Shown in pieces: positions 5,092-64,000 of a stretch of 64,000 nt of DNA. Every line of letters begins with the position of its first letter. Positions within the stretch are counted from its first letter, which is position 1. Origin of the DNA: Clostridiaceae bacterium (lineage in GTDB: Bacteria; Bacillota; Clostridia; TANB77; CAG-508); contig JAETPW010000003.1 of assembly GCA_021771025.1 (NCBI GenBank), positions 8,279 to 72,278 on the forward strand. Reading direction: 5' to 3'. The position numbers and the translations under genes were made by a program. The notes under the pieces were generated by a model, which was given only the letters and a program-made list of their open reading frames with translations, did no database searches and was not told where the DNA came from.

Positions 5092-5418
5092 ATGGCAAAG
5101 GCAACAGTTGTAACAAGTGAAAAAATCAGAATTAGACTAAAAGCGTATGATCATGTAATTTTAGAACAGTCTGCTGAAAAAATAGTAGATACTGCTAAGA
5201 AAACAGGAGCAAAGGTTTCAGGTCCAATTCCATTACCAACCCAAAAAGAAATCGTAACGATCTTACGTTCTCCACACAAATACAAAGATTCAAGAGAACA
5301 ATTTGAAATGAGAACCCATAAAAGAGTTATCGACATTCTTTACCCAACACAAAAAACAGTTGACAGTTTAATGAAATTAGAATTGCCAGCAGGTGTTGAC
5401 ATTGAAATTAAATTATAA
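5092..5418 (+). CDS. rpsJ: 30S ribosomal protein S10
   Basis: Translation [11 protein letters not shown]...; conserved position ahead of rplC. Confidence 0.95.
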
Positions 5419-5511: not shown

Positions 5512-6147
5512 ATGAAAAAAGGAATCATCGCCAAAAAAGTAGGAATGACACAAATCTTTGATGAAAAAGGAAATGTTATTCCCGTAACTGTTTTAGATGC
5601 TACACCAAACATCGTAGCACAAGTAAAAACAAAAGAAACCGATGGTTATCAAGCAATCCAATTAGGATTTGGAGAAATAAAAGATAAACACATCAATAAA
5701 CCAGAAAGAGGACATTTTGCTAAAGCAGGTCTTTCAAACAAAAAACATTTAAGAGAATTCAGACTAGAAACAGTAGAAACCTACAAAGTGGGAGACGAAG
5801 TAAAAGCAGACATCTTCGAAGCTGGAGAAAAAATCGACGTGCAAGGAACATCAAAAGGAAAAGGATTCCAAGGTGTTATCAAACGTCATGGACAACACAG
5901 AGGACCTATGGGACATGGATCAATGTATCATAGAAGACCAGGATCAATGGGATCAACATCTACCCCAGGTAGAGTTTTCAAAGGAAAAAAATTACCAGGA
6001 CATATGGGAAAAGTAACCATTACAATCCAAAACTTAGAAGTAGTTAAAGTCGATATGGACAAAAACGCTATTCTAGTAAAGGGAAGCGTACCTGGACCAA
6101 AAGGAGCAATCCTAAAAGTAAAATCAGCTGTAAAGGCTACTAAATAG
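5512..6147 (+). CDS. rplC: 50S ribosomal protein L3
   Basis: [16 protein letters not shown]...; conserved operon order. Confidence 0.95.
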
Positions 6148-11040: not shown

Positions 11041-11087
11041 GCCGTTAACGACGAAGGAGTTTTACGGATTAAAGATGCAAAAATCAC

Positions 11088-11203
11088 GCAATGCAATGGA
11101 GTGATTTCTGCATACCTCAGAAAAGCTCCTACTGCCTAAGTAAAAAGCAACGAAAAGCAATGAAGTGATTTCTGCATACCTTAAAAAAGCTCCTACTGCC
11201 TAA
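11088..11203 (+). repeat. Tandem direct repeat, two units of about 50 bp at about 90% identity, in the rplN-rplX spacer
   Basis: GCAATG(CAATG)GAGTGATTTCTGCATACCT(C/T)A(G/A)AAAAGCTCCTACTGCCTAA occurs at 11088-11139 and 11157-11203; a hairpin GCAAAAATCAC/GTGATTTCTGC overlaps unit 1. Confidence 0.7.
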
Positions 11204-16577: not shown

Positions 16578-16616
16578 CATCGTTTTTATCTTGTTTATCC
16601 ACCTAATGGGTAGGCA

Positions 16617-16675
16617 GGGTAGGGAAATAAAGGGGACGCCCTTTTCTTCCCTATTCAAAATTTCCCTATTTCAAG
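16617..16675 (+). repeat. GGGGACGCCC-core hairpin repeat, left-arm type (copy A)
   Basis: GGGTAGGGAAATAAAGGGGACGCCCTTTTCTTCCCTATTCAAAATTTCCCT is nearly identical to the left arm of the dnaK-dnaJ element. Confidence 0.8.
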
Positions 16676-16861
16676 TTAAAGGGGAAAGCCTAAAAATAAT
16701 GATTAGTTATCTAATCTAGGTAAGCTTTCCACGTACCAATACGATGAAAGAAAGAACAGATTGGCTTTAAAAGTTAGCAAATGTTAGGGAAAAAATAGGT
16801 AAATAAGATAAAGATTATGAAAAAACAATAATCTTAATTCAAAAGATAGGAAGTGTTTACT

Positions 16862-17518
16862 ATGGTCATTATCATGCTAGGAGCACCCGGAACAGGAAAG
16901 GGAACAGTAGCAGGAATCTTACAAGAGAAAATGGGAATTAAGCAAGTATCTACAGGAGATATATTTCGTAAAAACATCAAAGAAGGAACAGAACTAGGAA
17001 AATTAGCCGACAGTTACATATCCAAAGGAAATTTAGTACCAGATGAAGTAACCATTCAAATCGTTAAAGATCGTTTAAATGAGCCAGACGTAGAAAAAGG
17101 AATTATTTTAGATGGATTCCCAAGAACCATCGTTCAAGCAGAAGCATTAGAAAAAATGTTAGCAGAAAAAGGAAAAAAAGTCGATTTAGTCATTAATTTA
17201 GTTACCTCAGAAGAAGAAATTATTGAACGACTTGTTTACAGAAGAGTATGTCCAAATTGTAAAAGTATTTTCAATGTCATTCTACATCCACCAAAACAAG
17301 AAGGAATTTGTGACAATTGTGGACACGAATTAATCCATCGTGATGATGACAAAGAAGAAACCATAAAAGATAGATTTCAAACTTACTTAAAACAAACAAG
17401 TCCACTCATCGAGTATTATGAGAAAAAAGGCGTATTAAGAACAGAAGAAGTAAGCAAAAAAATCAATCGCATGGGAAAAGAAGTGGCAGAAGATATTGTT
17501 CAGGAATATCAATCCTAA
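16862..17518 (+). CDS. adk: Adenylate kinase with a zinc-binding lid
   Basis: P-loop GAPGTGKGT; lid CPNCKS...CDNCGHEL. The start is at the ATG 8 nt after AGGAAG. Confidence 0.93.
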   Translation: MVIIMLGAPGTGKGTVAGILQEKMGIKQVSTGDIFRKNIKEGTELGKLADSYISKGNLVPDEVTIQIVKDRLNEPDVEKGIILDGFPRTIVQAEALEKMLAEKGKKVDLVINLVTSEEEIIERLVYRRVCPNCKSIFNVILHPPKQEGICDNCGHELIHRDDDKEETIKDRFQTYLKQTSPLIEYYEKKGVLRTEEVSKKINRMGKEVAEDIVQEYQS

Positions 17519-17611: not shown

Positions 17612-17668
17612 AAATAGGGAAAAAATAGATAGGGAAAAAAAGGGCGTCCCCATAGGGAAGAAAGAAGG
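17612..17668 (+). repeat. GGGGACGCCC-core repeat, right-arm (inverted) type (copy B), 11 nt upstream of the map start codon
   Basis: AAATAGGGAAAAAATAGATAGGGAAAAAAAGGGCGTCCCCATAGGGAAGAAAG. Confidence 0.8.
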
Positions 17669-22363: not shown

Positions 22364-22392
22364 CGCAAATGTATCATTTGCGGTATTTTTTT
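22364..22392 (+). terminator. Rho-independent terminator after rplQ
   Basis: CGCAAATG/CATTTGCG 8-bp stem followed by a T-run. Confidence 0.7.
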
Positions 22393-22725
22393 GTCCTTTT
22401 GGGGACGTTTCTGTTTGGGACATTTTGTCCAAGTACATTTTGGACTTTTTTTCAATAGAAATAGTGGAAGTAAAAGGGGATTGAATATAGTAACTCCCTA
22501 AAACATTTTAACGTCAACATTGCACTATTATTTCAGTTTCATTTTTATATTTTCTTGTTTATGATAACAAGAAAAAAGTAGAAATCAAATAAACAGATAA
22601 CTTGGGTTCAGTGCTACTTTAGTGTAAAAACATTATTTTGTAACTATCTTCTAATTAAAAAAGTATTTTACAAAAACGGATTTATTTGTTATACTAAAAA
22701 CGATAAAAAATGAGGAGAGATAAAA

Positions 22726-36858: not shown

Positions 36859-38520
36859 ATGAATTACCAAGAATTAGCCAACCTAATATTCCCAGAAGCA
36901 AAAGACATTAGTTATTACGAAGAAAAATACCCAGAAAGAAACCTACCAGAAGGAGCCATCGTTACTAGAATAGCTCCAAGCCCAACAGGGTTTAGCCACA
37001 TAGGAGGCTTATACCAAGGGCTAATTGCTCGTAAATTAGCTGATCAAACCAAAGGCGTATTTTTCTTAAGAATAGAAGACACAGACCAAAAAAGAGAAGT
37101 AAAAAATGGAACCAGCGAAATTGTAGAATCATTAACCAACTTTGGAGTAGCACCAGACGAAGGAATGATCAGTGAAACAGAAAGCAAAGGAGAGTATGGT
37201 CCATACAAACAATCAGAAAGAAAAGAAATCTATCAAGCTTATGCCAAATATGCCATTGCTCAAGGGAAAGCTTATCCTTGTTTTTGTACACCAGAAGAAA
37301 CAGAAGAAATCAGAAATAAACAAGAAGTAGCCAAAATCAGACCAGGATATTATGGCATTTGGGCAAAATGCAGAAACTTAACCCTAGAAGAAATGGCAGA
37401 AAAAATTAAAGCAGGAGAAAAGTATATCATCCGTTTTAAATCACCAGGAAGAGAAGATCGAAAAATTCAACACAAAGATATCATTAAAGGTAAAGTAGAC
37501 TTCCCAGAAAATGATCAAGACATCGTCATCATCAAAGCAGATGGCTTGCCAACTTATCACTTTGCCCACATTGTGGATGATCATTTAATGAGAACCACTC
37601 ACGTTATCCGTGGAGATGAATGGCTATCCTCTGTACCTTTGCATTTACAATTATTCCATGAAATGGGATTCAAAGCACCTAAATATGCTCATATTGCTCC
37701 TATCATGAAAAACGATAACGGAAATAAACGTAAATTAAGTAAGCGAAAAGATCCAGAGGCAGCAGTAAGATATTATGCAGAAATGGGAATTCCACCAGAA
37801 GCGGTAAAAGAATACTTATTAAATATTGCTAACTCAACCTTTGAAAACTGGAGAAGAGCAAACCCAGACAAATCAAGTGATGAATTCGAATTAACCTTAA
37901 CCAAAATGAGCGTAAGTGGAGCCTTATTTGATATGGTAAAACTATTAGATGTAGCCAAAACCGTTATTTCCAAAATGACAGCAGAAGACATCTATCAAGA
38001 AACCGTAGCATGGGCTAAAATTCACGATCTCAGCTTAGTAGAATTACTAGCAGATAAAGAATATGCTCTACAAATTTTTGGGATAGAACGTGGAAACAAA
38101 AAACCAAGAAAAGACATCAGCAAATGGTCAGACGTAAAAGAAAATATTGACTATATGTATGATGAACTATTTGAACAAAACCAAGACGAATATCCTTTGC
38201 AAGTCATTCAAGACCCGGAAAAGATCAGTCAAATTTTACGTTTATATGAAGAAAAATATTATGACGAAAATGACGACAAACAAACTTGGTTTAACAAAAT
38301 CAAAGCATTAGCAGGAGAAATGGGATATGCTGAAGAAGTAAAAGAATTCAAAGCAAATCCAGAAAAATACGAAGCACACGTAGGCGATGTAAGTACAGTA
38401 TTGCGTGTAGCCTTAACCAAACGAATCAATACACCAGATATGTATGAAATTATGCAGGTGTTAGGAAAAGAAAGAATCATGAACCGATTTAAGCAAGCAA
38501 TGAAAAAAGTGTCCAATTAG
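36859..38520 (+). CDS. gltX: Glutamyl-tRNA synthetase
   Basis: HIGH-type motif APSPTGFSHIGG, RIEDTD, KLSKRK. Confidence 0.85.
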   Translation: MNYQELANLIFPEAKDISYYEEKYPERNLPEGAIVTRIAPSPTGFSHIGGLYQGLIARKLADQTKGVFFLRIEDTDQKREVKNGTSEIVESLTNFGVAPDEGMISETESKGEYGPYKQSERKEIYQAYAKYAIAQGKAYPCFCTPEETEEIRNKQEVAKIRPGYYGIWAKCRNLTLEEMAEKIKAGEKYIIRFKSPGREDRKIQHKDIIKGKVDFPENDQDIVIIKADGLPTYHFAHIVDDHLMRTTHVIRGDEWLSSVPLHLQLFHEMGFKAPKYAHIAPIMKNDNGNKRKLSKRKDPEAAVRYYAEMGIPPEAVKEYLLNIANSTFENWRRANPDKSSDEFELTLTKMSVSGALFDMVKLLDVAKTVISKMTAEDIYQETVAWAKIHDLSLVELLADKEYALQIFGIERGNKKPRKDISKWSDVKENIDYMYDELFEQNQDEYPLQVIQDPEKISQILRLYEEKYYDENDDKQTWFNKIKALAGEMGYAEEVKEFKANPEKYEAHVGDVSTVLRVALTKRINTPDMYEIMQVLGKERIMNRFKQAMKKVSN

Positions 38521-38693
38521 GGACATTTCTGTTTGGGACATTTCTGTGTATATACAATTAAAGACGAGTACATTGAAGGCAAGAAATGCCCCCAATGTAC
38601 TCTTCCAATTTAACAAAAAGAAGAGGATTACCATTAATTAACCATGAGAACTAGATAAAACTGAAGTCAAAATTGGACGAAAAGGAGGACATT

Positions 38694-39853: not shown

Positions 39854-40450
39854 TTAAAGGGAAATTTCCTCTTTTATGATGTTCCATACTTGATCCTGAT
39901 AAATTTTTCGTTCAGCAGAAAAAGGTAAAGTAGGAATATCGCCAATAGGATTCAAAATAGACTGAATTTGTTTTGTGGCTTCATCTACTTTCGTAATAGC
40001 TATTTTATCCGCTTTATTGGCTAAAATTAAACAAGGTAAACCAGAACGAATGATATAATCATACATCAAACGATCATTAGCGGATGGGCTATGGCGAATA
40101 TCCACCAAAAAAATAACTAAGGCAATCTCTTTACGAGAAAATAGATATTCCTCAATGAAAGAGCCAACTTGTTCTTGCTCTTTTTTGGACATTTTGCTAA
40201 ATCCATAACCGGGAAGATCAACAAAATAAAATAAATCATCCATACGATAAAAATTAAGTTGACGCGTTTTCCCCGGTTCACTACTGGTTCTTGCCAATTT
40301 TTTGCGGTTAATCATGGTATTGATAAAACTAGACTTTCCGACATTGGATTTGCCCACTAAAACAATTTCAGGAAGACCTGTTTTCGGGTATTGTTTTGGG
40401 CTAACTGCTGAGATTTCAAATTTTGGTTCTTTAATATTCATGGTTCTCAC
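39854..40450 (-). CDS. engB: Ribosome biogenesis GTPase YihA/EngB
   Basis: G1 motif GKSNVGKSSFIN and G3 DLPGYG. Confidence 0.85.
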   Translation of the reverse strand: MRTMNIKEPKFEISAVSPKQYPKTGLPEIVLVGKSNVGKSSFINTMINRKKLARTSSEPGKTRQLNFYRMDDLFYFVDLPGYGFSKMSKKEQEQVGSFIEEYLFSRKEIALVIFLVDIRHSPSANDRLMYDYIIRSGLPCLILANKADKIAITKVDEATKQIQSILNPIGDIPTLPFSAERKIYQDQVWNIIKEEISL

Positions 40451-40536
40451 TATAGGTTAGTTTTCAAAGCTAACCTAATTCCTTTCTCAAATTGATAAAC
40501 TAGTATAAAAGTGAGTTTATCTTCAATTTTTTATGA

Positions 40537-42331: not shown

Positions 42332-42424
42332 TTCCATAGAGGGGGCTTTTTAAAACACTTAAGCCCCTAATAAAGAAGCCGGTTATTTAAGTGTTAAGCC
42401 TAACGTAGGCCTTAGGAAACTGTC
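42332..42424. repeat. Copy X of a conserved core of about 95 nt; it is homologous to the core of the inverted-repeat element at 49205-49304
   Basis: About 75% identity to the 49205-49304 core (shared TTCCATAG..AGGGG..CTTTTTAA..AAGCCTAACGT..GGAAACTGTC); flanked by a short inverted repeat AAATTTAG/CTAAATT. Confidence 0.6.
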
Positions 42425-42519
42425 TACCTAAATTAAAAAGGGGACAAAGGCTGGTTTTGGTCAACCTGTCCCTAAAAAGGTAATTTTACCATTTTTTACC
42501 CCGTCCCCAATTAGGTAAG

Positions 42520-49134: not shown

Positions 49135-49385
49135 TATTTACCGTTTGCTGTAATTCTATCCGTGTAAAAAGGTAAGCCTAGCTAATGGTGATCCTATTAA
49201 TTTAACCTTCCATAGCAGGGTCTTTTTAAGACCTTTAGGTCCCTCTACACCGAAGCCTGTTATCGGGTTTTAAGCCTAACGTGGTCTTAGGGAACTGTCA
49301 GGTATAAATTAATAGGATCACCATTAGCTAGGCTTACCTTTTTACACTACTCTACAATTTATACGGCTGTAAATGGTAAAATTTT
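49135..49385. repeat. Inverted-repeat (MITE-like) element of about 250 bp: 43-bp perfect arms (49162-49204 and 49305-49347, extended imperfectly to about 80 bp) around a 100-nt core homologous to 42332-42424
   Basis: GTGTAAAAAGGTAAGCCTAGCTAATGGTGATCCTATTAATTTA and its exact reverse complement flank the core. Confidence 0.7.
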
Positions 49386-51169: not shown

Positions 51170-51431
51170 CCGAAGAGCAGGATTAATTCAATGGCTATGT
51201 CAACATTCCATGGCAGTCATAGCTGATTAACTAGTTAAAAGGACAAAGAAAAGAACCCTTATTTAAGTCATGCTAACAAATTTGCCAAGAACCAAAATGA
51301 TCGTTGAAGATAATGAAATGAAATAGACAAGGAAATGGGGATCAAGATAATTTTTAGCATCCAGTCTAGTAAGATCTCGAAGTTTACTAATAGGGGAAAG
51401 GGAAAATAGGTTTAGCTTTGAAAACTAACCT

Positions 51432-52049
51432 ATGCTAGAAAAAATGAAACAAGAAATTGAAAGAAAATACGCCTTAAACCAAATACCAGAAAACTTAAGG
51501 ATAGAAAAGGCAGAAATAATAGAACAAGGATTTATTTATCGTGATTTTTCAACCATCATTCGTGTAAGAAAAATCACTCCTGTATATCCTCAAAAAGAAG
51601 AGCCATACTATATCTATACCGTAAAAACAAAAGGAGATATTAACTATACAGGAGATTACACCCTAGGGCAAAAATACGAAATAGAAAATGAAATCAGTAG
51701 GGAAGAATATGAAAAGGTAATTCCTCATCGAATTAGCCAAAAAATAATAAAAACCAGAATAGTAGTACCAATCGAAAATCAGTTAAAAGTAGAAATAGAC
51801 CTCTATGACGATTACCTAACTGGTTTACTAACAGCAGAAGTGGAATTTCCTGATCAAGAAGCAGCAAAGCATTTTCATCAACCAGAATGGCTAGGGGAAG
51901 AATTAGGGTATAAAGAACTATCCAACCGAAAACTAGCCGAAATGACAAAAGAAGAATGGCAAAGCAAAGTAGGACCAAAAAGAATAAAACAAAATGAAAA
52001 TTTAATTGTTAAGCTAAAAGAAAAAATAAAACAAAATGGAAACCAATAG
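51432..52049 (+). CDS. CYTH-domain protein (triphosphate tunnel metalloenzyme family) inserted between grpE and dnaK
   Basis: N-terminal EIERKY (ExExK motif), about 200 aa, alternating acidic beta-strand pattern. Confidence 0.55.
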   Translation: MLEKMKQEIERKYALNQIPENLRIEKAEIIEQGFIYRDFSTIIRVRKITPVYPQKEEPYYIYTVKTKGDINYTGDYTLGQKYEIENEISREEYEKVIPHRISQKIIKTRIVVPIENQLKVEIDLYDDYLTGLLTAEVEFPDQEAAKHFHQPEWLGEELGYKELSNRKLAEMTKEEWQSKVGPKRIKQNENLIVKLKEKIKQNGNQ

Positions 52050-52169: not shown

Positions 52170-54095
<1,926 letters not shown>

Positions 54096-54118
54096 GAGAG
54101 AAAAGAAAAAAGACAGGT

Positions 54119-54258
54119 AGGTAGGGAAATAAGGGGGACGCCCTTTTCTTCCCTATCTAAAATTTCCCTCTTTCTCCTAATTTAAAAATAGAAAAATCAA
54201 TACAATAGAAAGAAGTTATGGGATAGGGAAGAAAAGGGCGTCCCCCTTATTTCCCTAC
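54119..54258. repeat. GGGGACGCCC-core element, complete copy C: perfect 37-bp inverted arms (54121-54157 and 54222-54258) separated by 64 nt, between dnaK and dnaJ
   Basis: GTAGGGAAATAAGGGGGACGCCCTTTTCTTCCCTATC and its exact reverse complement. Confidence 0.85.
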
Positions 54259-54287
54259 TTACTACATAAAATGGAGGAAGTTAATCA

Positions 54288-55451
54288 ATGGCAGGAAAAA
54301 GAGATTATTATGAGGTATTGGGAGTTAGCAAAACAGCGACAGATGATGAATTAAAAAAGGCCTATCGAAAATTAGCCAAAAAATATCATCCTGATGCCAA
54401 TCCTGACAATAAAGAAGAATCAGAAAAAAAATTCAAAGAAGTAAATGAAGCATACGAAACCTTATCAGACCCACAAAAACGTAAAATGTATGACCAATTT
54501 GGACCAGATGGACCACAAGGGTTTGGCGGAGCAGGAGGACCTTTTGGTGGACAGGGCGGATACTATTCTTATAATGGATCAGGTTTTGATGGATTTGGTG
54601 ACTTTGGCGATTTAGGAGACATCTTCTCCTCATTCTTTGGAGGAGGCTTTGGAGGAAGGCAATCGAGAAAACCAAATGGACCAAGAAAAGGAGCAGACTT
54701 AAACCTAAATATAGACATTTCCTTTGAAGAAGCCTATTTAGGAATCGAAAAAGAAATTGTTATCACAAGAAACGAAACCTGTACAACTTGCCAAGGAACA
54801 GGAGCAAAACCAGGGACCAATCCAATCAAATGCCCTGAATGTCAAGGTTCTGGTCAAGTAAGGCAAGTACAAAACACCATTTTAGGGCAAGTTCAAACAA
54901 CAAGAACCTGTTCTACCTGCCATGGAACAGGAGAGATCATACAAGAACCTTGTGAAACCTGCCGAGGAAAAGGAACCATTCGAAAACAACCAAAAATCAA
55001 AGTAAAAATACCAGCAGGAATTGACGACAATCAAACAGTAGTCCTACGTAACGAAGGAGACCCCGGAGAAAAAGGTGGACCAAACGGAGACCTATACATC
55101 ACCGTAAGAATCAAACGCCATAGTATATATACCAGAAAAGGAAATAATGTTCTATGCGAAGTGCCAATCACCATCACTCAAGCAACATTAGGAGCAGACC
55201 TAGAAATTCCTATGGTAGATGGAAGTAAAGAAACGTATAAAATACCAGAAGGAACACAAACAGGCACTAAATTCACTATTCGTAATAAAGGATTTAAAAT
55301 GGTTAACTCTTCTGCACAAGGAGATTTCATTTTCACCGTCACTGTACAAACACCAAAACGATTAAGTAAAGAACAAAGAGAATTATTGGTTCAATTAGCA
55401 AAAACGATGAATGAACAACCACCAGTAAAAAAACGTGGGTTGTTTGGATAA
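54288..55451 (+). CDS. dnaJ: Chaperone DnaJ
   Basis: J domain (HPD), Gly/Phe-rich region, four CxxCxGxG repeats. Confidence 0.95.
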
Positions 55452-56248: not shown

Positions 56249-56607
56249 AACTAACCTCTAATATATTTAAATAATAACATTTACATCTCCTGCTCGGAGC
56301 ATTTCCATAACCATATTTACATTCTAATATATTTAAACAATAACTGTGCTACTAAACTTAAAAAGAATTGATTAATTCCACTTTATATTCTAATATATTT
56401 AAATAATAACTTAACATTTTAACAATATACAAGAAACCAAGTCGACCTTTATATTCTAATATATTTAAATAATAACGTACAAACATAGCAGAATTGCCAA
56501 ACAATTTAACAGTCTTTATATTCTAATATATTTAAATAATAACAAAACAGAAAATATAAATTCGTAAAAAATTATAACTTTATATTCTAATATATTTAAA
56601 TAATAAC
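56249..56607 (-). CRISPR. Orphan CRISPR-like array: six 30-bp repeats (consensus CTTTATATTCTAATATATTTAAATAATAAC on the + strand) with five unique spacers of 34-37 bp. The leftmost repeat is degenerate, so the leader is inferred on the right and transcription on the minus strand
   Basis: Repeats at 56249-78 (degenerate), 56315-44 (3 mismatches), 56381-410, 56447-76, 56514-43 and 56578-607; spacers are 36, 36, 36, 37 and 34 nt. A candidate minus-strand promoter TTGATT-16-TATGAT lies at about 56650-56695. No cas genes are in the window. Confidence 0.6.
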
Positions 56608-56918
56608 AGGTAGCCCAACAACCCCACCATTTTTCTATATTTTCTTCTTCCATTCTGTCGATCTATACCAATCATACCACAAATTATCATAAAATCAATA
56701 ACATTTTCAAAAAAGTTAATATGACTAGCTTTTCAGCATCTGTCGTACTCCCCAATTTTTTACATTATTAAAGGTCGACAGATTTATCTAAAAAACGAAA
56801 AAGAAACTTCCCATAAAAACATTCTCTCTCAAAACAAAAAATACCTCAAACACTAGACATTACTCCCAAAAAAAGATATAATAACCTTAGCAAAATCAAG
56901 AGAGGATACAAAAAGGAA

Positions 56919-59933: not shown

Positions 59934-60965
59934 ATGTCAGGCATGGAAGAAGAAAGAATCATCAATCCAGAACTAGAAAATCAAGGAGAAGAACGCTTAG
60001 AAAATTCATTGCGTCCGAAAACATTAGAAGAATATATAGGGCAAGACAAAATAAAAGAACACATGAAAATATATATTGAAGCAGCGAAAAAAAGAGGAGA
60101 ACCACTAGATCATGTTCTCCTTTATGGACCACCGGGATTAGGAAAAACAACTCTCTCCAATATCATTGCTAACGAAATGCAATCCAATATCAAAATTACT
60201 TCCGGACCAGCCATAGAAAAACCAGGTGACTTAGCCTCTATTCTAACAAATTTATGCGAATATGACGTCCTTTTCATCGATGAAATACACCGCTTAAGCA
60301 AAAGCGTAGAAGAAATTCTCTATCCGGCCTTAGAAGATTACACACTAGATATTATGATCGGAAAAGGACCAAGTGCGAGATCAATTCGCTTAGATCTACC
60401 CAAATTCACTTTAATTGGAGCGACCACAAAAGCAGGATCATTAACCACACCATTAAGAGACCGATTTGGCATAGTTGATCGACTAGAACTCTATAATGAA
60501 GAAGATTTAACCAAAATCATCAAACGATCAAGCCATATCTTAGACGTAGAAATACAAGAAGAAGCAGCCATAGAAATGGCACGAAGATCAAGAGGAACAC
60601 CAAGAATAGCCAACCGACTACTAAAACGAGTAAGAGACTACGCATCAGTCATCGGAAATGGAACAATCGATCTAAAAATAGCCAAACACGCATTAAACAA
60701 ACTAGAAATAGACGAATTAGGTCTAGATGATATCGACCGAAAACTCCTAGACACCATGATCACCCAATATGCCGGAAAGCCAGTAGGAATAGAAGCATTA
60801 GCAGCAACCATAGGAGAAGAATTAGACACTATAGAAGATGTCTATGAACCATACCTAATCCAAATTGGATTCATTGCTAGAACACTAAGAGGAAGAATGG
60901 TTTTACCACCAGCGTATCATCATTTAGGGTACCCTTATTTAGGGGACTCAGGGAGAAGGAACTAG
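59934..60965 (+). CDS. ruvB: Holliday junction branch migration helicase RuvB
   Basis: Walker [10 protein letters not shown], RuvB domain architecture. No ruvA lies upstream. Confidence 0.9.
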
Positions 60966-61102
60966 GGAACTAGGGAAAAAAAGGGGACGCCCTTAATTTC
61001 CCTATCCAAAATTTCCCTGTTTTAACAATAGCAGTAATATTCAGCAGTAAATCAATAGGGAAAAAAAGCATAGGGAAGAAAAGGGCGTCCCCTAAGGGAA
61101 AG
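60962..61102. repeat. GGGGACGCCC-core element, copy D: an imperfect inverted pair separated by about 70 nt. It overlaps the ruvB stop and ends about 10 nt before the next ATG
   Basis: Left arm AGGGAAAAAAAGGGGACGCCCTTAATTTCCCTATCC; right arm ATAGGGAAGAAAAGGGCGTCCCCTAAGGGAAAGG. Confidence 0.8.
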
Positions 61103-61111
61103 GATATAAAT

Positions 61112-62671
61112 ATGAGGAACAAAGCAAAAAAAATAGCCATATTTGCTTTCTTATTTGTGATGATATTATCATTATTACTCATCAAACCAATTGAAGATTT
61201 AGATGAAATATGGAATTATAATACAGCCAGAGCAATTGCCTCAGGCTTAACACCTTACCGAGAAGTTAGCATGATCACCACTCCATTTTTACCCATGATA
61301 AATTCTCTTTTTTTGCACGGGATAGCCAATCAAGTGATTACCATGAGAGTGTTAGCAGCTTTATTAGGAGCAGGAATTTGCTATTTACTTTACCGTATAT
61401 TTCAGCACATTTGGCACGAAACCAATATCAGTTTAATAGCAACAGCAGGAATAGGGTATTTACTTCATGAATTTTTCTGTTTAGACTATAACTTTGCCAA
61501 TCTTTTTATCGCTCTCCTATTGTTGCTGATTACGATAAACCAAAATCAAAAACAACAATCCATACAAGAAATCACTCTCCAGAAGAATAAACAAATAGGA
61601 ATGGGGTTATTAGCGGGAATAGCGATAGGAATTAAGCAAACAACAGGACTTACCATTTGCTTAATTACCTTACTACTACCTCTGCTAGAAATACGAAAAA
61701 AAGAAGACTTAAAAGCATATGGGAAAATAACAGCCTATCGCATAATAGGAATGGCGATTCCCATGATAGGATTACTAGGATATTTAATCATCACACAATC
61801 TTTACCTGACTTTATTTCCTACTCTATACAAGGAATATCAACATTTACCAATCAAATCCCATATGAACGATTATTAGAAAGCGACAAAACAGAAATAAAA
61901 ATACTAGCTAGATTAGTACCAATCTCATGGCTTATTCTATTAATAACAAGTATAATCACAAGAAAAAAACACCAAGAAAGAAACAATTGGCTAAGTATGC
62001 TAGGATATGGACTAGCCATGATTATTATGATCTATCCTATCTCAGACGAAATACATTTTATCATTGGAAGCACAATTTTTATTCTAGCCGATATAGCTAT
62101 TTTAGGAAGCTTTGGAAAATATGTCCTACAAAAATTAATCATCAAATTCCCCAAACTACACCTAAAAAGAACCTATAAAATCATCACATTATTGCTATTT
62201 TTAGGAATCTATGGCTGGATAGCAAGTAAAGGCATAACCAACCTAAGGAAATACGATACCTTAGAAAAAAACGAAACAATCGCTCACTACCAAGAAATCG
62301 AAATAAAAGACTATTTAAAGCAAAGAATTAATGAAATAGACCAATACATCACCGAAAAAAACAAGCAAGGAAAAACAGTGTATATCCTAGATGCAGAAGC
62401 AGCAATTTACCAAATCCCATTAAACCACTATCACAAAAACTTTGATATGTTCTTAAAAGGAAACTTAGGAAAAGAAGGAGAACAAGGAATAATCAAACAA
62501 ATCCAAGAACTACAGCAAGACCCTAACAACCTATTTCTCATTCGTCATCCAGACTGGCGACAAAATTGGCAAACACCAATGGAAGTTATTCAGTATGTAA
62601 GAAACAATTTCATTAAAACGGGAGAAATATCGTTTTATGAAGAATTTCTTCCTTCTGGGGACGGTTCCTAA
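61112..62671 (+). CDS. Polytopic membrane protein, GT-C fold glycosyltransferase-like (ArnT/PMT/YfhO-like)
   Basis: 519 aa with more than 10 TM helices and the loop motif DLDEIWNYNTARAIASG. Confidence 0.5.
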   Translation: MRNKAKKIAIFAFLFVMILSLLLIKPIEDLDEIWNYNTARAIASGLTPYREVSMITTPFLPMINSLFLHGIANQVITMRVLAALLGAGICYLLYRIFQHIWHETNISLIATAGIGYLLHEFFCLDYNFANLFIALLLLLITINQNQKQQSIQEITLQKNKQIGMGLLAGIAIGIKQTTGLTICLITLLLPLLEIRKKEDLKAYGKITAYRIIGMAIPMIGLLGYLIITQSLPDFISYSIQGISTFTNQIPYERLLESDKTEIKILARLVPISWLILLITSIITRKKHQERNNWLSMLGYGLAMIIMIYPISDEIHFIIGSTIFILADIAILGSFGKYVLQKLIIKFPKLHLKRTYKIITLLLFLGIYGWIASKGITNLRKYDTLEKNETIAHYQEIEIKDYLKQRINEIDQYITEKNKQGKTVYILDAEAAIYQIPLNHYHKNFDMFLKGNLGKEGEQGIIKQIQELQQDPNNLFLIRHPDWRQNWQTPMEVIQYVRNNFIKTGEISFYEEFLPSGDGS

Positions 62672-62862
62672 AACGAAAAAATTTTCCTTTTAGGGACAGG
62701 TCTATTAAGAAAGATAGAAAAGACCAAGAAATGGGAACCATTGATTTAAACGGAAAAACTCCATTAAGAAAAAATAAAAATAGATAATAGCAAACGGTAA
62801 GACGTGTCCCAAAAACGAAAAAAACTTCGTTTTGAGAACCGTCCCCAAAACGAAAAAAGGAG
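62657..62862. repeat. Intergenic repeat cluster: inverted GGGGACGGTTC/GAACCGTCCCC about 180 bp apart, plus three copies of AAAACGAAAAAA
   Basis: 62657-62667 is the reverse complement of 62838-62848; direct repeats GTCCC(C)AAAA(A)CGAAAAAA at 62805 and 62842; hairpin AAAACGAA..TTCGTTTT. Confidence 0.6.
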
Positions 62863-62868
62863 ATTAGC

Positions 62869-64000
62869 ATGGAAAATGGAAAAGAAAAACTAACGAAAAA
62901 CCAAATCATCACACTAGTTGTTATTCTCCTTTTACTAATAGGAGCATTAGCACGTTTCTTAGGGTTAGGGTCATATCCTAATGCTCTAAATGTGGATGAA
63001 GCGTCTAGTGGATATGAGGCTTTTTCTCTTCTTCGTTTTGGTATGGATCGTAATGGCAATTCTTTTCCTGTTTTTTTACAAGCTTGGGGAAGTGGGCAAA
63101 ATGCACTTTATACCTATTTATTAATTCCTTTTATTGCTTTTTTGGGGCTTAGTGAACTTACCATTCGATTACCTATGGCAATAGTAGGGTGCATCAGTTT
63201 ATGGATGTTTTACCAATTATTGAAAAGAATAGGAAACCAGAAAATAGCGATCATTGGCTTGTTTTTTTTCAGTATTTGTCCTTGGCATATCATGAAAAGT
63301 AGATGGGGGCTAGAGTCCAATCTGTTTCCTGACTTGATTTTATGGGGAGTTTATTTTCTAGTCAAAGGAATTACAGAAAATAAAAAAGGTTTTTTCTATG
63401 GTAGTTTTGTTCTCATGGGATTGTCAGCTTATAGTTATGGAACTTCGTATTTTTTCTTACCATTGTTTGTGATTCCTACTTTAATGATACTTGTTAAACA
63501 AAAGAAGATAAAGCTAAAAGACTTTTGGCTAGCACTAGGAACAATCAGTTTAGTCACTTTACCGATGATTTTATTTGTGATTATTAATACATTTCACCTA
63601 CCACAAATAGAAATATTGGGAATTACCATTCCTAAACTAGAAGTCAACCGTTTTCAAGAGATAACTTCTGTGTTTTCAACTGATTTCTTAACACAAAGCC
63701 TACACAATTTTACCGAAAGCATGAAAGTACTCATTGCCCAAAATGACCATTTACCATGGAATGCGATAAAGCCGTATGGAACAATTTATCTATTTTCTAG
63801 TGTTTTTACCATCATTGGATTAGTAACCAGCTTACGAAGAAAAAATAAAAGACCCTATGAATATTTAATCCATTTATGGTTTATCATAGGAATATTACTT
63901 ACCTTTATTTGTGAACCCAATATTAACCGCTTAAATATAATTATGATCCCTATTATTTATTATACCGTACGAGGCATAGAAGAAGCGATTCCTAACAAAA
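62869..64000 (+). CDS. GT-C fold membrane glycosyltransferase (family 39/83-like), 5' part only; it runs off the window
   Basis: MENGKEKLTKNQIITLVVILLLLIG..., NALNVDEASSGYEAFSLL loop motif (DE..Y type), many TM helices. The frame is open to the end of the window. Confidence 0.6.
   Translation, partial: MENGKEKLTKNQIITLVVILLLLIGALARFLGLGSYPNALNVDEASSGYEAFSLLRFGMDRNGNSFPVFLQAWGSGQNALYTYLLIPFIAFLGLSELTIRLPMAIVGCISLWMFYQLLKRIGNQKIAIIGLFFFSICPWHIMKSRWGLESNLFPDLILWGVYFLVKGITENKKGFFYGSFVLMGLSAYSYGTSYFFLPLFVIPTLMILVKQKKIKLKDFWLALGTISLVTLPMILFVIINTFHLPQIEILGITIPKLEVNRFQEITSVFSTDFLTQSLHNFTESMKVLIAQNDHLPWNAIKPYGTIYLFSSVFTIIGLVTSLRRKNKRPYEYLIHLWFIIGILLTFICEPNINRLNIIMIPIIYYTVRGIEEAIPNK

Follow-up and report, generated by a model that had tools for sequence, protein, structure and literature searches.

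A hairpin repeat lies between dnaK and dnaJ in a 64-kb stretch of contig JAETPW010000003.1 from a Clostridiaceae bacterium (the whole stretch that was analysed, hereafter the window; it is AT-rich, with 32.8% G+C), and related arms stand in three further spacers. The question raised by this locus is what kind of element it is. An original prediction, made from the letters of the window alone, had offered a miniature mobile element, a regulatory RNA and a recombination site. The dnaK-dnaJ repeat is most likely a small non-coding repeat of mobile type, spread by a tyrosine (HUH) transposase, and we are fairly confident that the six arms of the window constitute a REP/REPIN-type (TIRYT/"TIRtron"-like) non-autonomous repeat family tied to a Y1/HUH transposase. 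Such systems are well known in Proteobacteria, and this family is a new, lineage-restricted example from uncultured gut Clostridia. The literature collection that was searched contained no paper on this repeat family or on REPINs in Clostridia.

Structure of the arms in the window

The six arms share the pattern GGGGACGCCCTT-N3-TTCCCTAT and are distributed over four spacers, as inverted doublets between dnaK and dnaJ and between ruvB and a glycosyltransferase (GT) gene and as single arms on either side of adk. The core GGGGACGCCC was found six times in the window (16632+, 17642-, 54134+, 54236-, 60983+ and 61083-), where 0.27 occurrences are expected, and this count was reached in none of 100 shuffles. 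All six arms were matched with zero mismatches by the longer pattern GGGGACGCCCTTNNNTTCCCTAT (expected 0.00), while a profile hidden Markov model (HMM) trained on 123 distinct arms returned the same six (E-values of 1e-8 to 8e-12) and no others, so that the predicted number of six is recovered exactly by both. The unit consists of a hairpin of ~30 nt, with the stem (T)AGGGAA/TTCCCT(A) and a loop of 15-17 nt opening with GGGGACG, one flank of which bears one to four TTTCCCTAT sub-repeats. Two such units, inverted around a short AT-rich spacer, make up a doublet.

The doublet between dnaK and dnaJ is the most regular. Its left arm (54117-54157, plus strand; stem TAGGGAA/TTCCCTA with GGGGACGCCC in the loop; DNA fold -10.1 kcal/mol, z -3.3; HMM E 1e-10) and its right arm (54222-54262, minus strand, ending 25 nt ahead of the dnaJ ATG at 54288) are 41 nt each and 98% complementary, and they contain the 37-nt perfectly complementary arms described originally. 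The AT-rich spacer between them (54158-54221) is 64 nt long, as had been noted, and carries a second TTTCCCT sub-repeat at its left end (54163-54169). Both of these arms are individually palindromic.

The single arm between secY and adk (16609-16669, plus strand; HMM E 8e-12; DNA fold -11.9 kcal/mol, z -3.6) contains a hairpin at 16620-16653 and an inner TTTCCCTAT at 16661-16669, its inner side being directed toward adk. Its counterpart between adk and map is degenerate (17614-17660, minus strand; HMM E 3e-10): the core and the inner TAGGGAA repeats are retained and the arm extends into the map ribosome-binding region, but no hairpin is formed (-2.7 kcal/mol, z -0.85) because the outer half of the stem is replaced by ATAGGGAAG. 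The left arm of the ruvB-GT doublet (60942-61018, plus strand; DNA fold -13.5 kcal/mol, z -3.5) begins with a degenerate outer unit (GGGGAC at 60942-60947, TAGGGAA at 60963-60969); further in lie an intact hairpin at 60971-61005 and, at 61012-61018, an inner TTTCCCT. Beyond a spacer at 61019-61055 lies a degenerate right arm (61056-61104, minus strand; HMM E 5e-10) that is likewise without the outer stem half and a hairpin, its purine-rich end AAGGGAAAGGA lying 7 nt ahead of the ATG at 61112.

When single arms were folded as DNA, a hairpin was thus obtained for four of the six (-8.7 to -13.5 kcal/mol). The prediction that each arm is itself a hairpin is borne out for these four, but fails for the arms preceding map and the GT gene, which have lost half of the outer stem. 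The window copies are 84-93% alike and two of them are decayed; they are probably old, and are presumably tolerated because of their location in spacers.

A transposase gene bracketed by the same arms

A pattern scan of one genome per species (loci numbered L001 onward) detected the arm in at least 64 loci, all of which, among the matches listed, belong to metagenome-assembled genomes (MAGs) of uncultured Clostridia or to Clostridium sp. 26_22. Most of the listed matches derive from one rabbit-gut MAG (uncultured Clostridia, Lapin-008 bin75) and the rest from Clostridium sp. 26_22 and four further MAGs. At least 132 arm matches occur in the 64 loci and the window together, 122 of them exact matches in 53 loci (380 kb) of the rabbit-gut MAG; these loci were selected by the arm pattern itself, and their copy density is therefore no genome-wide estimate. 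The presence of the family in many independent assemblies rules out a local duplication artefact.

A tblastn search with approximate IS200 and YafM sequences, which served as a lead only, gave a weak match in locus L051 of the rabbit-gut MAG. The open reading frame (ORF) concerned (L051 5167-5934, minus strand; 255 aa) carries the Pfam domain Y1_Tnp (3e-9), and its best NCBIfam model is REP_Tyr_transpos (NF047646) with 67.1 bits, the IS200 model scoring 19 bits. A profile of 29 homologues found TnpA-REP of E. coli (PDB 4ER8; 9e-7) but none of the IS200/IS605 transposase chains. The same structure was the top fold match of an AlphaFold model of the L051 protein (mean pLDDT 88; E 2.5e-8; TM-score, normalised by target length, 0.71), with the TnpA proteins of IS608 and ISDra2 ranking behind it. 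Residues of the HUH motif (N-H-x-H; N59, H60 and H62), of the Y---NP motif (Y120, N124 and P125) and the serine that follows (S140) are invariant in 29 of 29 sequences. The model also predicts an all-helical C-terminal domain of ~100 aa. Matches of this domain to helix-turn-helix (HTH) families are scattered and sub-threshold only (HTH_37, HTH_3, HTH_24, HTH_28 and HTH_23); together with a weak match to a sigma-28 (FliA) profile (0.017), they weakly suggest an HTH nature for the extension.

The L051 gene is bracketed by inverted copies, ~60 nt in length, of the window-type arm (5107-5175 and 6026-6090), and it is the sole homologue in L001-L083 (including the 380 kb of the rabbit-gut MAG) and the window taken together. 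In the rabbit-gut MAG it adjoins genes for PSP1 and ferredoxin. Three further lineages (45-46% protein identity) show the gene order PSP1, ferredoxin, transposase and pyruvate:ferredoxin oxidoreductase (PFOR), and the neighbourhood of another two homologues (57-61% identity) is conserved on the PFOR side at least. This conservation of the gene neighbourhood across lineages argues for vertical inheritance of the single-copy transposase gene. The arm variant differs by lineage along with the homologue (for example, GGGATTTTGGGGACGGACTC...TTTCCC and GTGGGGATTGGGGGCCAGGTCT...AATCCCCAC), and the arms flanking the 61%-identical homologue of L084/85 are 86-92% identical to those of the window.

Hairpins flanking transposase homologues

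A metagenome scan with the transposase profile yielded 80 loci of 26-49% identity. Of 40 genes examined for flanking repeats (34 metagenome homologues and six clade loci), most have inverted flanks scoring above shuffles; the terminal inverted repeats (TIRs) measure 60-78 nt at L051 and L084. The repeats flanking the homologues are hairpins: their stems span 5-10 bp and vary in sequence, and their loops of 13-17 nt open with GGGGAC(G/A). Covariation was analysed for 60 distinct GGGGAC sites located within 350 nt of 36 homologues, mostly distant ones; the alignment was anchored on GGGGAC alone and a 7-bp stem around a 13-nt loop was scored. Stem cells were paired in 73% of cases, against 42.5% in shuffles (none of 500 reached the observed value) and 35-44% with a slid partner. 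Double-compensatory cells numbered 145 where 54.5 were expected, and the covariation score was 0.68 compared with 0.19 for the control.

GGGGAC is invariant in the loop motif, which reads GGGGACGC in the window and GGGGACGG, GGGGACGT or GGGGACAG at the homologues; at its seventh position G is commoner than A, the published consensus being GGGGWSAS. As the GGGGAC loop is common to hairpins flanking the whole transposase family, the GGGGACGCCC core is the lineage version of a family-wide loop motif. The loop of the window lineage has an extra small inner GGG/CCC stem.

Doublets in related Clostridia and their target sites

The unit seen in the related loci is GGGAA-N2-GGGGACGCCC-T5-7-TTCCCTA, followed on one side by TTTTCCCT(A/C)T sub-repeats. 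Its typical form in the rabbit-gut MAG is the inverted doublet with 112 nt from core to core; variants possess two or three tandem 32-nt units per side, or are forms of ~244 nt with longer interiors. Of 27 simple doublets in this MAG, 23 have a partner that is 96-99% identical, the non-palindromic central loop included, and that may lie in either orientation; this recurrence identifies the doublet as a whole as the multiplying unit. Forty of 42 placeable clusters are intergenic, though ~88% of the sampled 380 kb is coding. Their neighbouring genes are convergent in 14 cases, tandem in 16 and divergent in four, and stop codons are often abutted.

The original prediction had likened the repeat to ERIC and Correia sequences. 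Such an element would be a classical miniature inverted-repeat transposable element (MITE), that is, a deletion derivative of an insertion sequence (IS) with a DDE transposase, mobilised in trans through its TIRs and creating target-site duplications, as for ERIC, Correia/NEMIS and RUP. The doublets do resemble these families, being non-coding, 110-250 bp in size, provided with long inverted ends and located in spacers; co-transcription with neighbouring genes and strong RNA hairpins are further common traits. Some copies, such as those of L062, L055 and L042, are even bounded by TA...TA. A TA duplication, however, fits the TAGCC/TAACC subset only and is not general (L009, L030, L045 and L046 are without it), nor is such a boundary proof of duplication, because the CCCTAG-CC junction of tandem units can itself produce TA. 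In a list of 37 complete elements, of which the rabbit-gut MAG contributes 34, no target-site duplication recurred consistently. While Correia/NEMIS, ERIC and RUP have TA or other target duplications and DDE-type parents, neither was seen for the Clostridia arms: no DDE transposase with these ends was noticed in the sampled 380 kb, where the Y1/HUH enzyme is encoded by the only arm-bracketed gene. Lone hairpins and tandem 32-nt units, moreover, are features resembling REP/BIME. A MITE origin is therefore very unlikely. The general part of the prediction, a dispersed, structured, non-coding repeat resembling miniature mobile DNA, is upheld, but since there is no consistent duplication and the only arm-carrying transposase is of the Y1/HUH RAYT/TIRYT type, REP/REPIN/BIME and TIRtrons are the right comparison.

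Arms with a common inner sequence at the contig ends of L022, L025 and L047 were considered as the end of an autonomous IS; this was rejected, as the arms lie upstream of paralogous surface-protein genes. L022 (5924-6725), L025 (1-360) and L047 (1-240), all of the rabbit-gut MAG, hold three paralogues for large, probably surface, proteins, whose conserved 5' region opens with one arm, the inner side being gene-ward.

The element was also compared with plasmid and phage collections by blastn, with zero matches, and the arm pattern was not found in a scan of viral contigs.

Comparison with known repeat systems

The REP/REPIN/BIME-RAYT systems of E. coli and Pseudomonas fluorescens SBW25 (PMC3116915, PMC3337134, PDB 4ER8) likewise consist of short imperfect extragenic palindromes, with inverted doublets that are copied whole. 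In both cases unit number varies among clusters, singlets derive from doublets and the 3' ends of genes are preferred. The single-copy, vertically inherited Y1/HUH enzyme bracketed by its own repeats (a REPtron) is also shared, as is the co-diversification of repeat and enzyme; for the Clostridia this likeness is drawn from the related genomes (L051 and L084/85). The systems differ in that the conserved part is here the GGGGAC-initiated loop of 13-17 nt and not the stem foot, and in that the TTTCCCTAT sub-repeats are additional. In addition, the Clostridia enzyme is ~100 aa longer at its C-terminus, and it is found in an AT-rich Firmicute, not in a proteobacterium.

TIRtrons, as Di Nocera et al. 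(2013, PMC3733652) named them, are RAYT-like genes (TIRYTs) with long inverted-repeat flanks and a common GGGGWSAS; in some species the repeats also form moderately abundant families, whose members stand alone, as dimers or in clusters. According to Quentin et al. (2018, PMC6006769), most TIRYTs belong to TnpA-Y1 subclass 2.1, whose members have a Ser motif and are extended C-terminally by an HTH-like region; the extensions of this class are Bac_DnaA_C, HTH_23 or HTH_28-like, and no REP-like structures were found beside subclass 2.1 genes (PMC6006769). The subclass corresponds to RAYT Group 1 (PMC6006769; Bertels et al. 2017, PMC5581495), which is present in Clostridia too, highly abundant flanking words being confined to Groups 2 and 3 (PMC5581495). 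The present system agrees with TIRtrons in its long TIRs, the GGGG motif (GGGGACGC or GGGGACGG here), the predicted C-terminal helical extension, the Ser after the catalytic Tyr and the Clostridia host, and the L051-type protein probably belongs to subclass 2.1. It differs in its clear flanking hairpins with covarying stems and in the number of arms, which is well over 100 in one MAG. A broader proposition, which we regard as evenly balanced, is that subclass 2.1/Group 1/TIRYT, the largest class among RAYT-like transposases, has a defined substrate in single-stranded DNA, namely a hairpin (a freely covarying stem of 5-10 bp and a GGGGAC loop of 13-17 nt), and sustains vertically inherited, REPIN-like populations of >100 copies in AT-rich, small-genome gut Clostridia, with its gene locked in the PSP1-ferredoxin-transposase-PFOR synteny.

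Elements of the IS200/IS605 family (IS608, ISDra2) share the Y1/HUH fold, the recognition of subterminal hairpins on single-stranded DNA and the lack of target-site duplication. Their own ends, however, are not mutual inverted repeats, they are multi-copy and autonomous, and their Tyr motif is different. The Clostridia gene, by contrast, occurs once and in a fixed synteny, and what multiplies there are the small doublets.

Orthologous spacers in relatives

Comparison of the dnaK-dnaJ spacer with that of relatives, as proposed with the original prediction, showed it to be 47 or 117 nt long and free of the element in species with a DnaJ of 85-87% identity. These sister species carry a small GC hairpin and a T-run after dnaK. 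At ruvB-GT, too, relatives have short spacers, of ~5 nt in Clostridium sp. 26_22 and of 17 nt in L080; the window exceeds the former by ~145 nt. Two conspecific contigs differ from each other: the JGI contig L068 (98.8% identical) has the full dnaK-dnaJ doublet, while in the Logan contig L069, whose dnaK and dnaJ are at least 99% identical, a lone hairpin matching the right arm is left, a difference accounted for by an exact 102-nt deletion between two TAGGGAA direct repeats. As a dispersed repeat would lead one to expect, most short-read contigs of the species end within the arms upstream of dnaJ and map, and every map-bearing Logan contig stops within the arm.

Unrelated small repeats occur at some of the same sites. 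In the sister species represented by L078 the ruvB-GT spacer is occupied by an unrelated palindromic element of ~160 nt (16830-16990), and L080 (11165-11445) and L082 differ by a 148-nt insertion/deletion after dnaJ that is bounded by direct repeats of ~40 nt. Small repeats seem to have landed repeatedly in the ruvB-GT and post-dnaJ spacers.

Neighbouring genes and transcripts

The genes next to the arms were identified through Pfam as SecY, ADK, Peptidase_M24 (map), HSP70 (dnaK, 52194-54095), DnaJ (dnaJ, 54288-55451), RuvB and a GT87-like protein. The proximity of right arms to start codons that had been reported was confirmed, the arms ending at 54262, 17660 and 61104 and the ATGs lying at 54288 (dnaJ), 17679 (map) and 61112 (GT gene). 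The statement that all copies are intergenic holds for the others but not for the ruvB-GT element, whose degenerate outer unit (60942-60965) codes for the final residues of RuvB and its stop codon. The predicted RuvB of the window ends in ...YLGDSGRRN*, the stop being the TAG of the first TAGGGAA, while the orthologue of Clostridium sp. 26_22 ends in ...YLGE*; as read from the two predicted proteins, the C-terminus is lengthened by 5 residues by the element.

As RNA, the dnaK-dnaJ spacer has a folding energy of -87 kcal/mol (z -9.3) with a predicted stem of 43 bp. The dnaK-dnaJ transcript thus probably contains a very stable stem where sister species have a small terminator-like hairpin, and owing to this position it could act as a 3' stabiliser, an attenuator or a target of a double-strand RNase. 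The map and GT genes may be affected as well, since purine-rich arm ends lie 7-18 nt before their start codons, and effects of the arms on host mRNAs generally are plausible.

It could be asked, therefore, whether the arms are cis-acting RNAs selected by the host to control dnaK/dnaJ, adk/map and ruvB/GT, for instance by terminating or attenuating transcription between cistrons, by offering RNase III a stem to process or by modulating translation. The stability of the stem, the small GC hairpin and T-run found after dnaK in sister species and the right arms, which stop 7-25 nt short of start codons, are in keeping with such a role. The orthologous spacers of close relatives are without the sequence, however; the genes beside the arms are unrelated to one another and mostly convergent, with arms lying in either orientation, and two of the three start-proximal arms are unable to fold. 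Nor do they have a terminator-like tail: no stem with a T-run was detected in 53900-54400, one weak terminator-like site lies on the opposite strand in the adk-map arm region (17659-17647), and scans of the elements for terminators and promoters gave nothing exceeding shuffles. An Rfam search of the whole window at gathering scores returned tRNA only, and at permissive E-values the dnaK-dnaJ spacer matched solely sub-threshold, generic long-hairpin models of miRNA precursors. With no Rfam family, no T-run and an element that is absent from sister spacers, the regulatory-RNA option gains no specific support, and its chance of being the explanation is slim. A secondary use of the arms by the host is possible.

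The arrangement around adk bears on a third explanation, in which the arms are sites of a site-specific recombinase that inverts the enclosed DNA (for example, adk) or are integron-like cassette sites. adk is enclosed by inverted arms that are 940 nt apart and 85% complementary, and bacteria do have recombination sites that act as folded single strands, attC being one. Yet no recombinase or integrase was recognised among the element-adjacent ORFs checked by Pfam, secY-adk-map is a standard gene order, and most copies enclose just an AT-rich loop of ~30 nt that is promoterless. As each arm can point either way, arms oriented at random would be arranged like those around adk in ~1/4 of cases, and two independent single arms fit the arrangement. 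The recombination-site option, which is thus also without specific support, is extremely improbable.

Proposed mechanism and points against it

Spread by a tyrosine transposase, the preferred explanation, can be outlined as follows. The cognate enzyme would be the single-copy, vertically inherited RAYT/TIRYT-kind Y1/HUH protein, which in related genomes is bracketed by the arms. By analogy with TnpA-REP of E. coli and TnpA of IS608, it may act where DNA is exposed as a single strand, as at the replication fork, recognising the hairpin that folds there, and its HUH/Tyr site may cut and rejoin the DNA beside this hairpin. The entire doublet would then be copied or moved with no target-site duplication. 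It might be speculated that the C-terminal domain binds the TTTCCCTAT sub-repeats.

Several points weigh against this explanation. A homologue of the Y1 transposase is absent from the 64-kb window, and the 67.1 bits of the L051 protein lie under the curated RAYT cutoff of NF047646, which is 80. Canonical REPs have a conserved unpaired 5' GTAG (GT[AG]G) tag that the Clostridia arms lack: in the window GTAG overlaps the stem (GTAGGGAA), and arms of the rabbit-gut MAG begin with CCGGGAA or GAGGGAA. The lack of target-site duplication is a weak negative, as the ends of the element are not definable to the base, and the singlet variant is known from one short-read de Bruijn contig (L069). The window copies, being diverged (84-93%) and partly decayed, may be relics. 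For this class of transposases, furthermore, transposition has not been experimentally shown (PMC3733652, PMC6006769).

Other repeats in the window

A second doublet of GGGGAC type is found at 62645-62716 and 62800-62858, with 59-nt arms that are 80% complementary and 96 nt apart. It lies in the spacer after the GT gene, overlapping the GT stop and ending 11 nt before an ATG at 62870, and single copies of this second family occur at 22392-22425, 38510-38543 and 42464-42509. Its motifs GGGGACGGTTCC and GGGGACGTTTCTG, followed by (A/G)GGGACA, are like the loops of hairpins beside distant Y1 homologues, and the genome may therefore host two such families.

Upstream of hrcA (49162-49347), two perfectly complementary 43-nt arms are placed 100 nt apart. 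Contig L069 begins within this element, which suggests another dispersed repeat, and its interior resembles 42400-42430 of the window. Copies of the palindrome TAGGTTAG-N-TTT-N-AAA-N-CTAACCTA are located at 40437-40480 and 51405-51448, one of them just upstream of an unannotated ORF (51432-52049) between grpE and dnaK. Six direct repeats of ~30 nt (CTTTATATTCTAATATATTTAAATAATAAC) with unique spacers of ~36 nt form a CRISPR-like mini-array at 56256-56613, between a flavin-reductase-like gene and Alg14; no cas gene was seen among the neighbouring ORFs. In the ribosomal-protein gene cluster (11079-11203) a 61-nt segment is tandemly duplicated with 87% identity.

Significance

The repeats of the window are accounted for by this family; they do not represent a novel type of regulatory RNA. 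For the annotation of MAGs, they account for the recurrent breaks of short-read contigs just upstream of dnaJ and map, and the tail of RuvB illustrates that gene ends can be rewritten by such repeats. For the study of REP sequences and RAYTs, the family is an example from Firmicutes in which enzyme and repeat are clearly linked, and the GGGGAC-loop hairpin is a candidate substrate for a class of transposases whose DNA target is undefined in earlier descriptions (PMC3733652, PMC6006769). If the broader proposition on subclass 2.1 is true, the REPIN-RAYT model of a "within-genome replicator" would reach from Proteobacteria to Firmicutes, and a concrete oligonucleotide substrate would be available for biochemistry.

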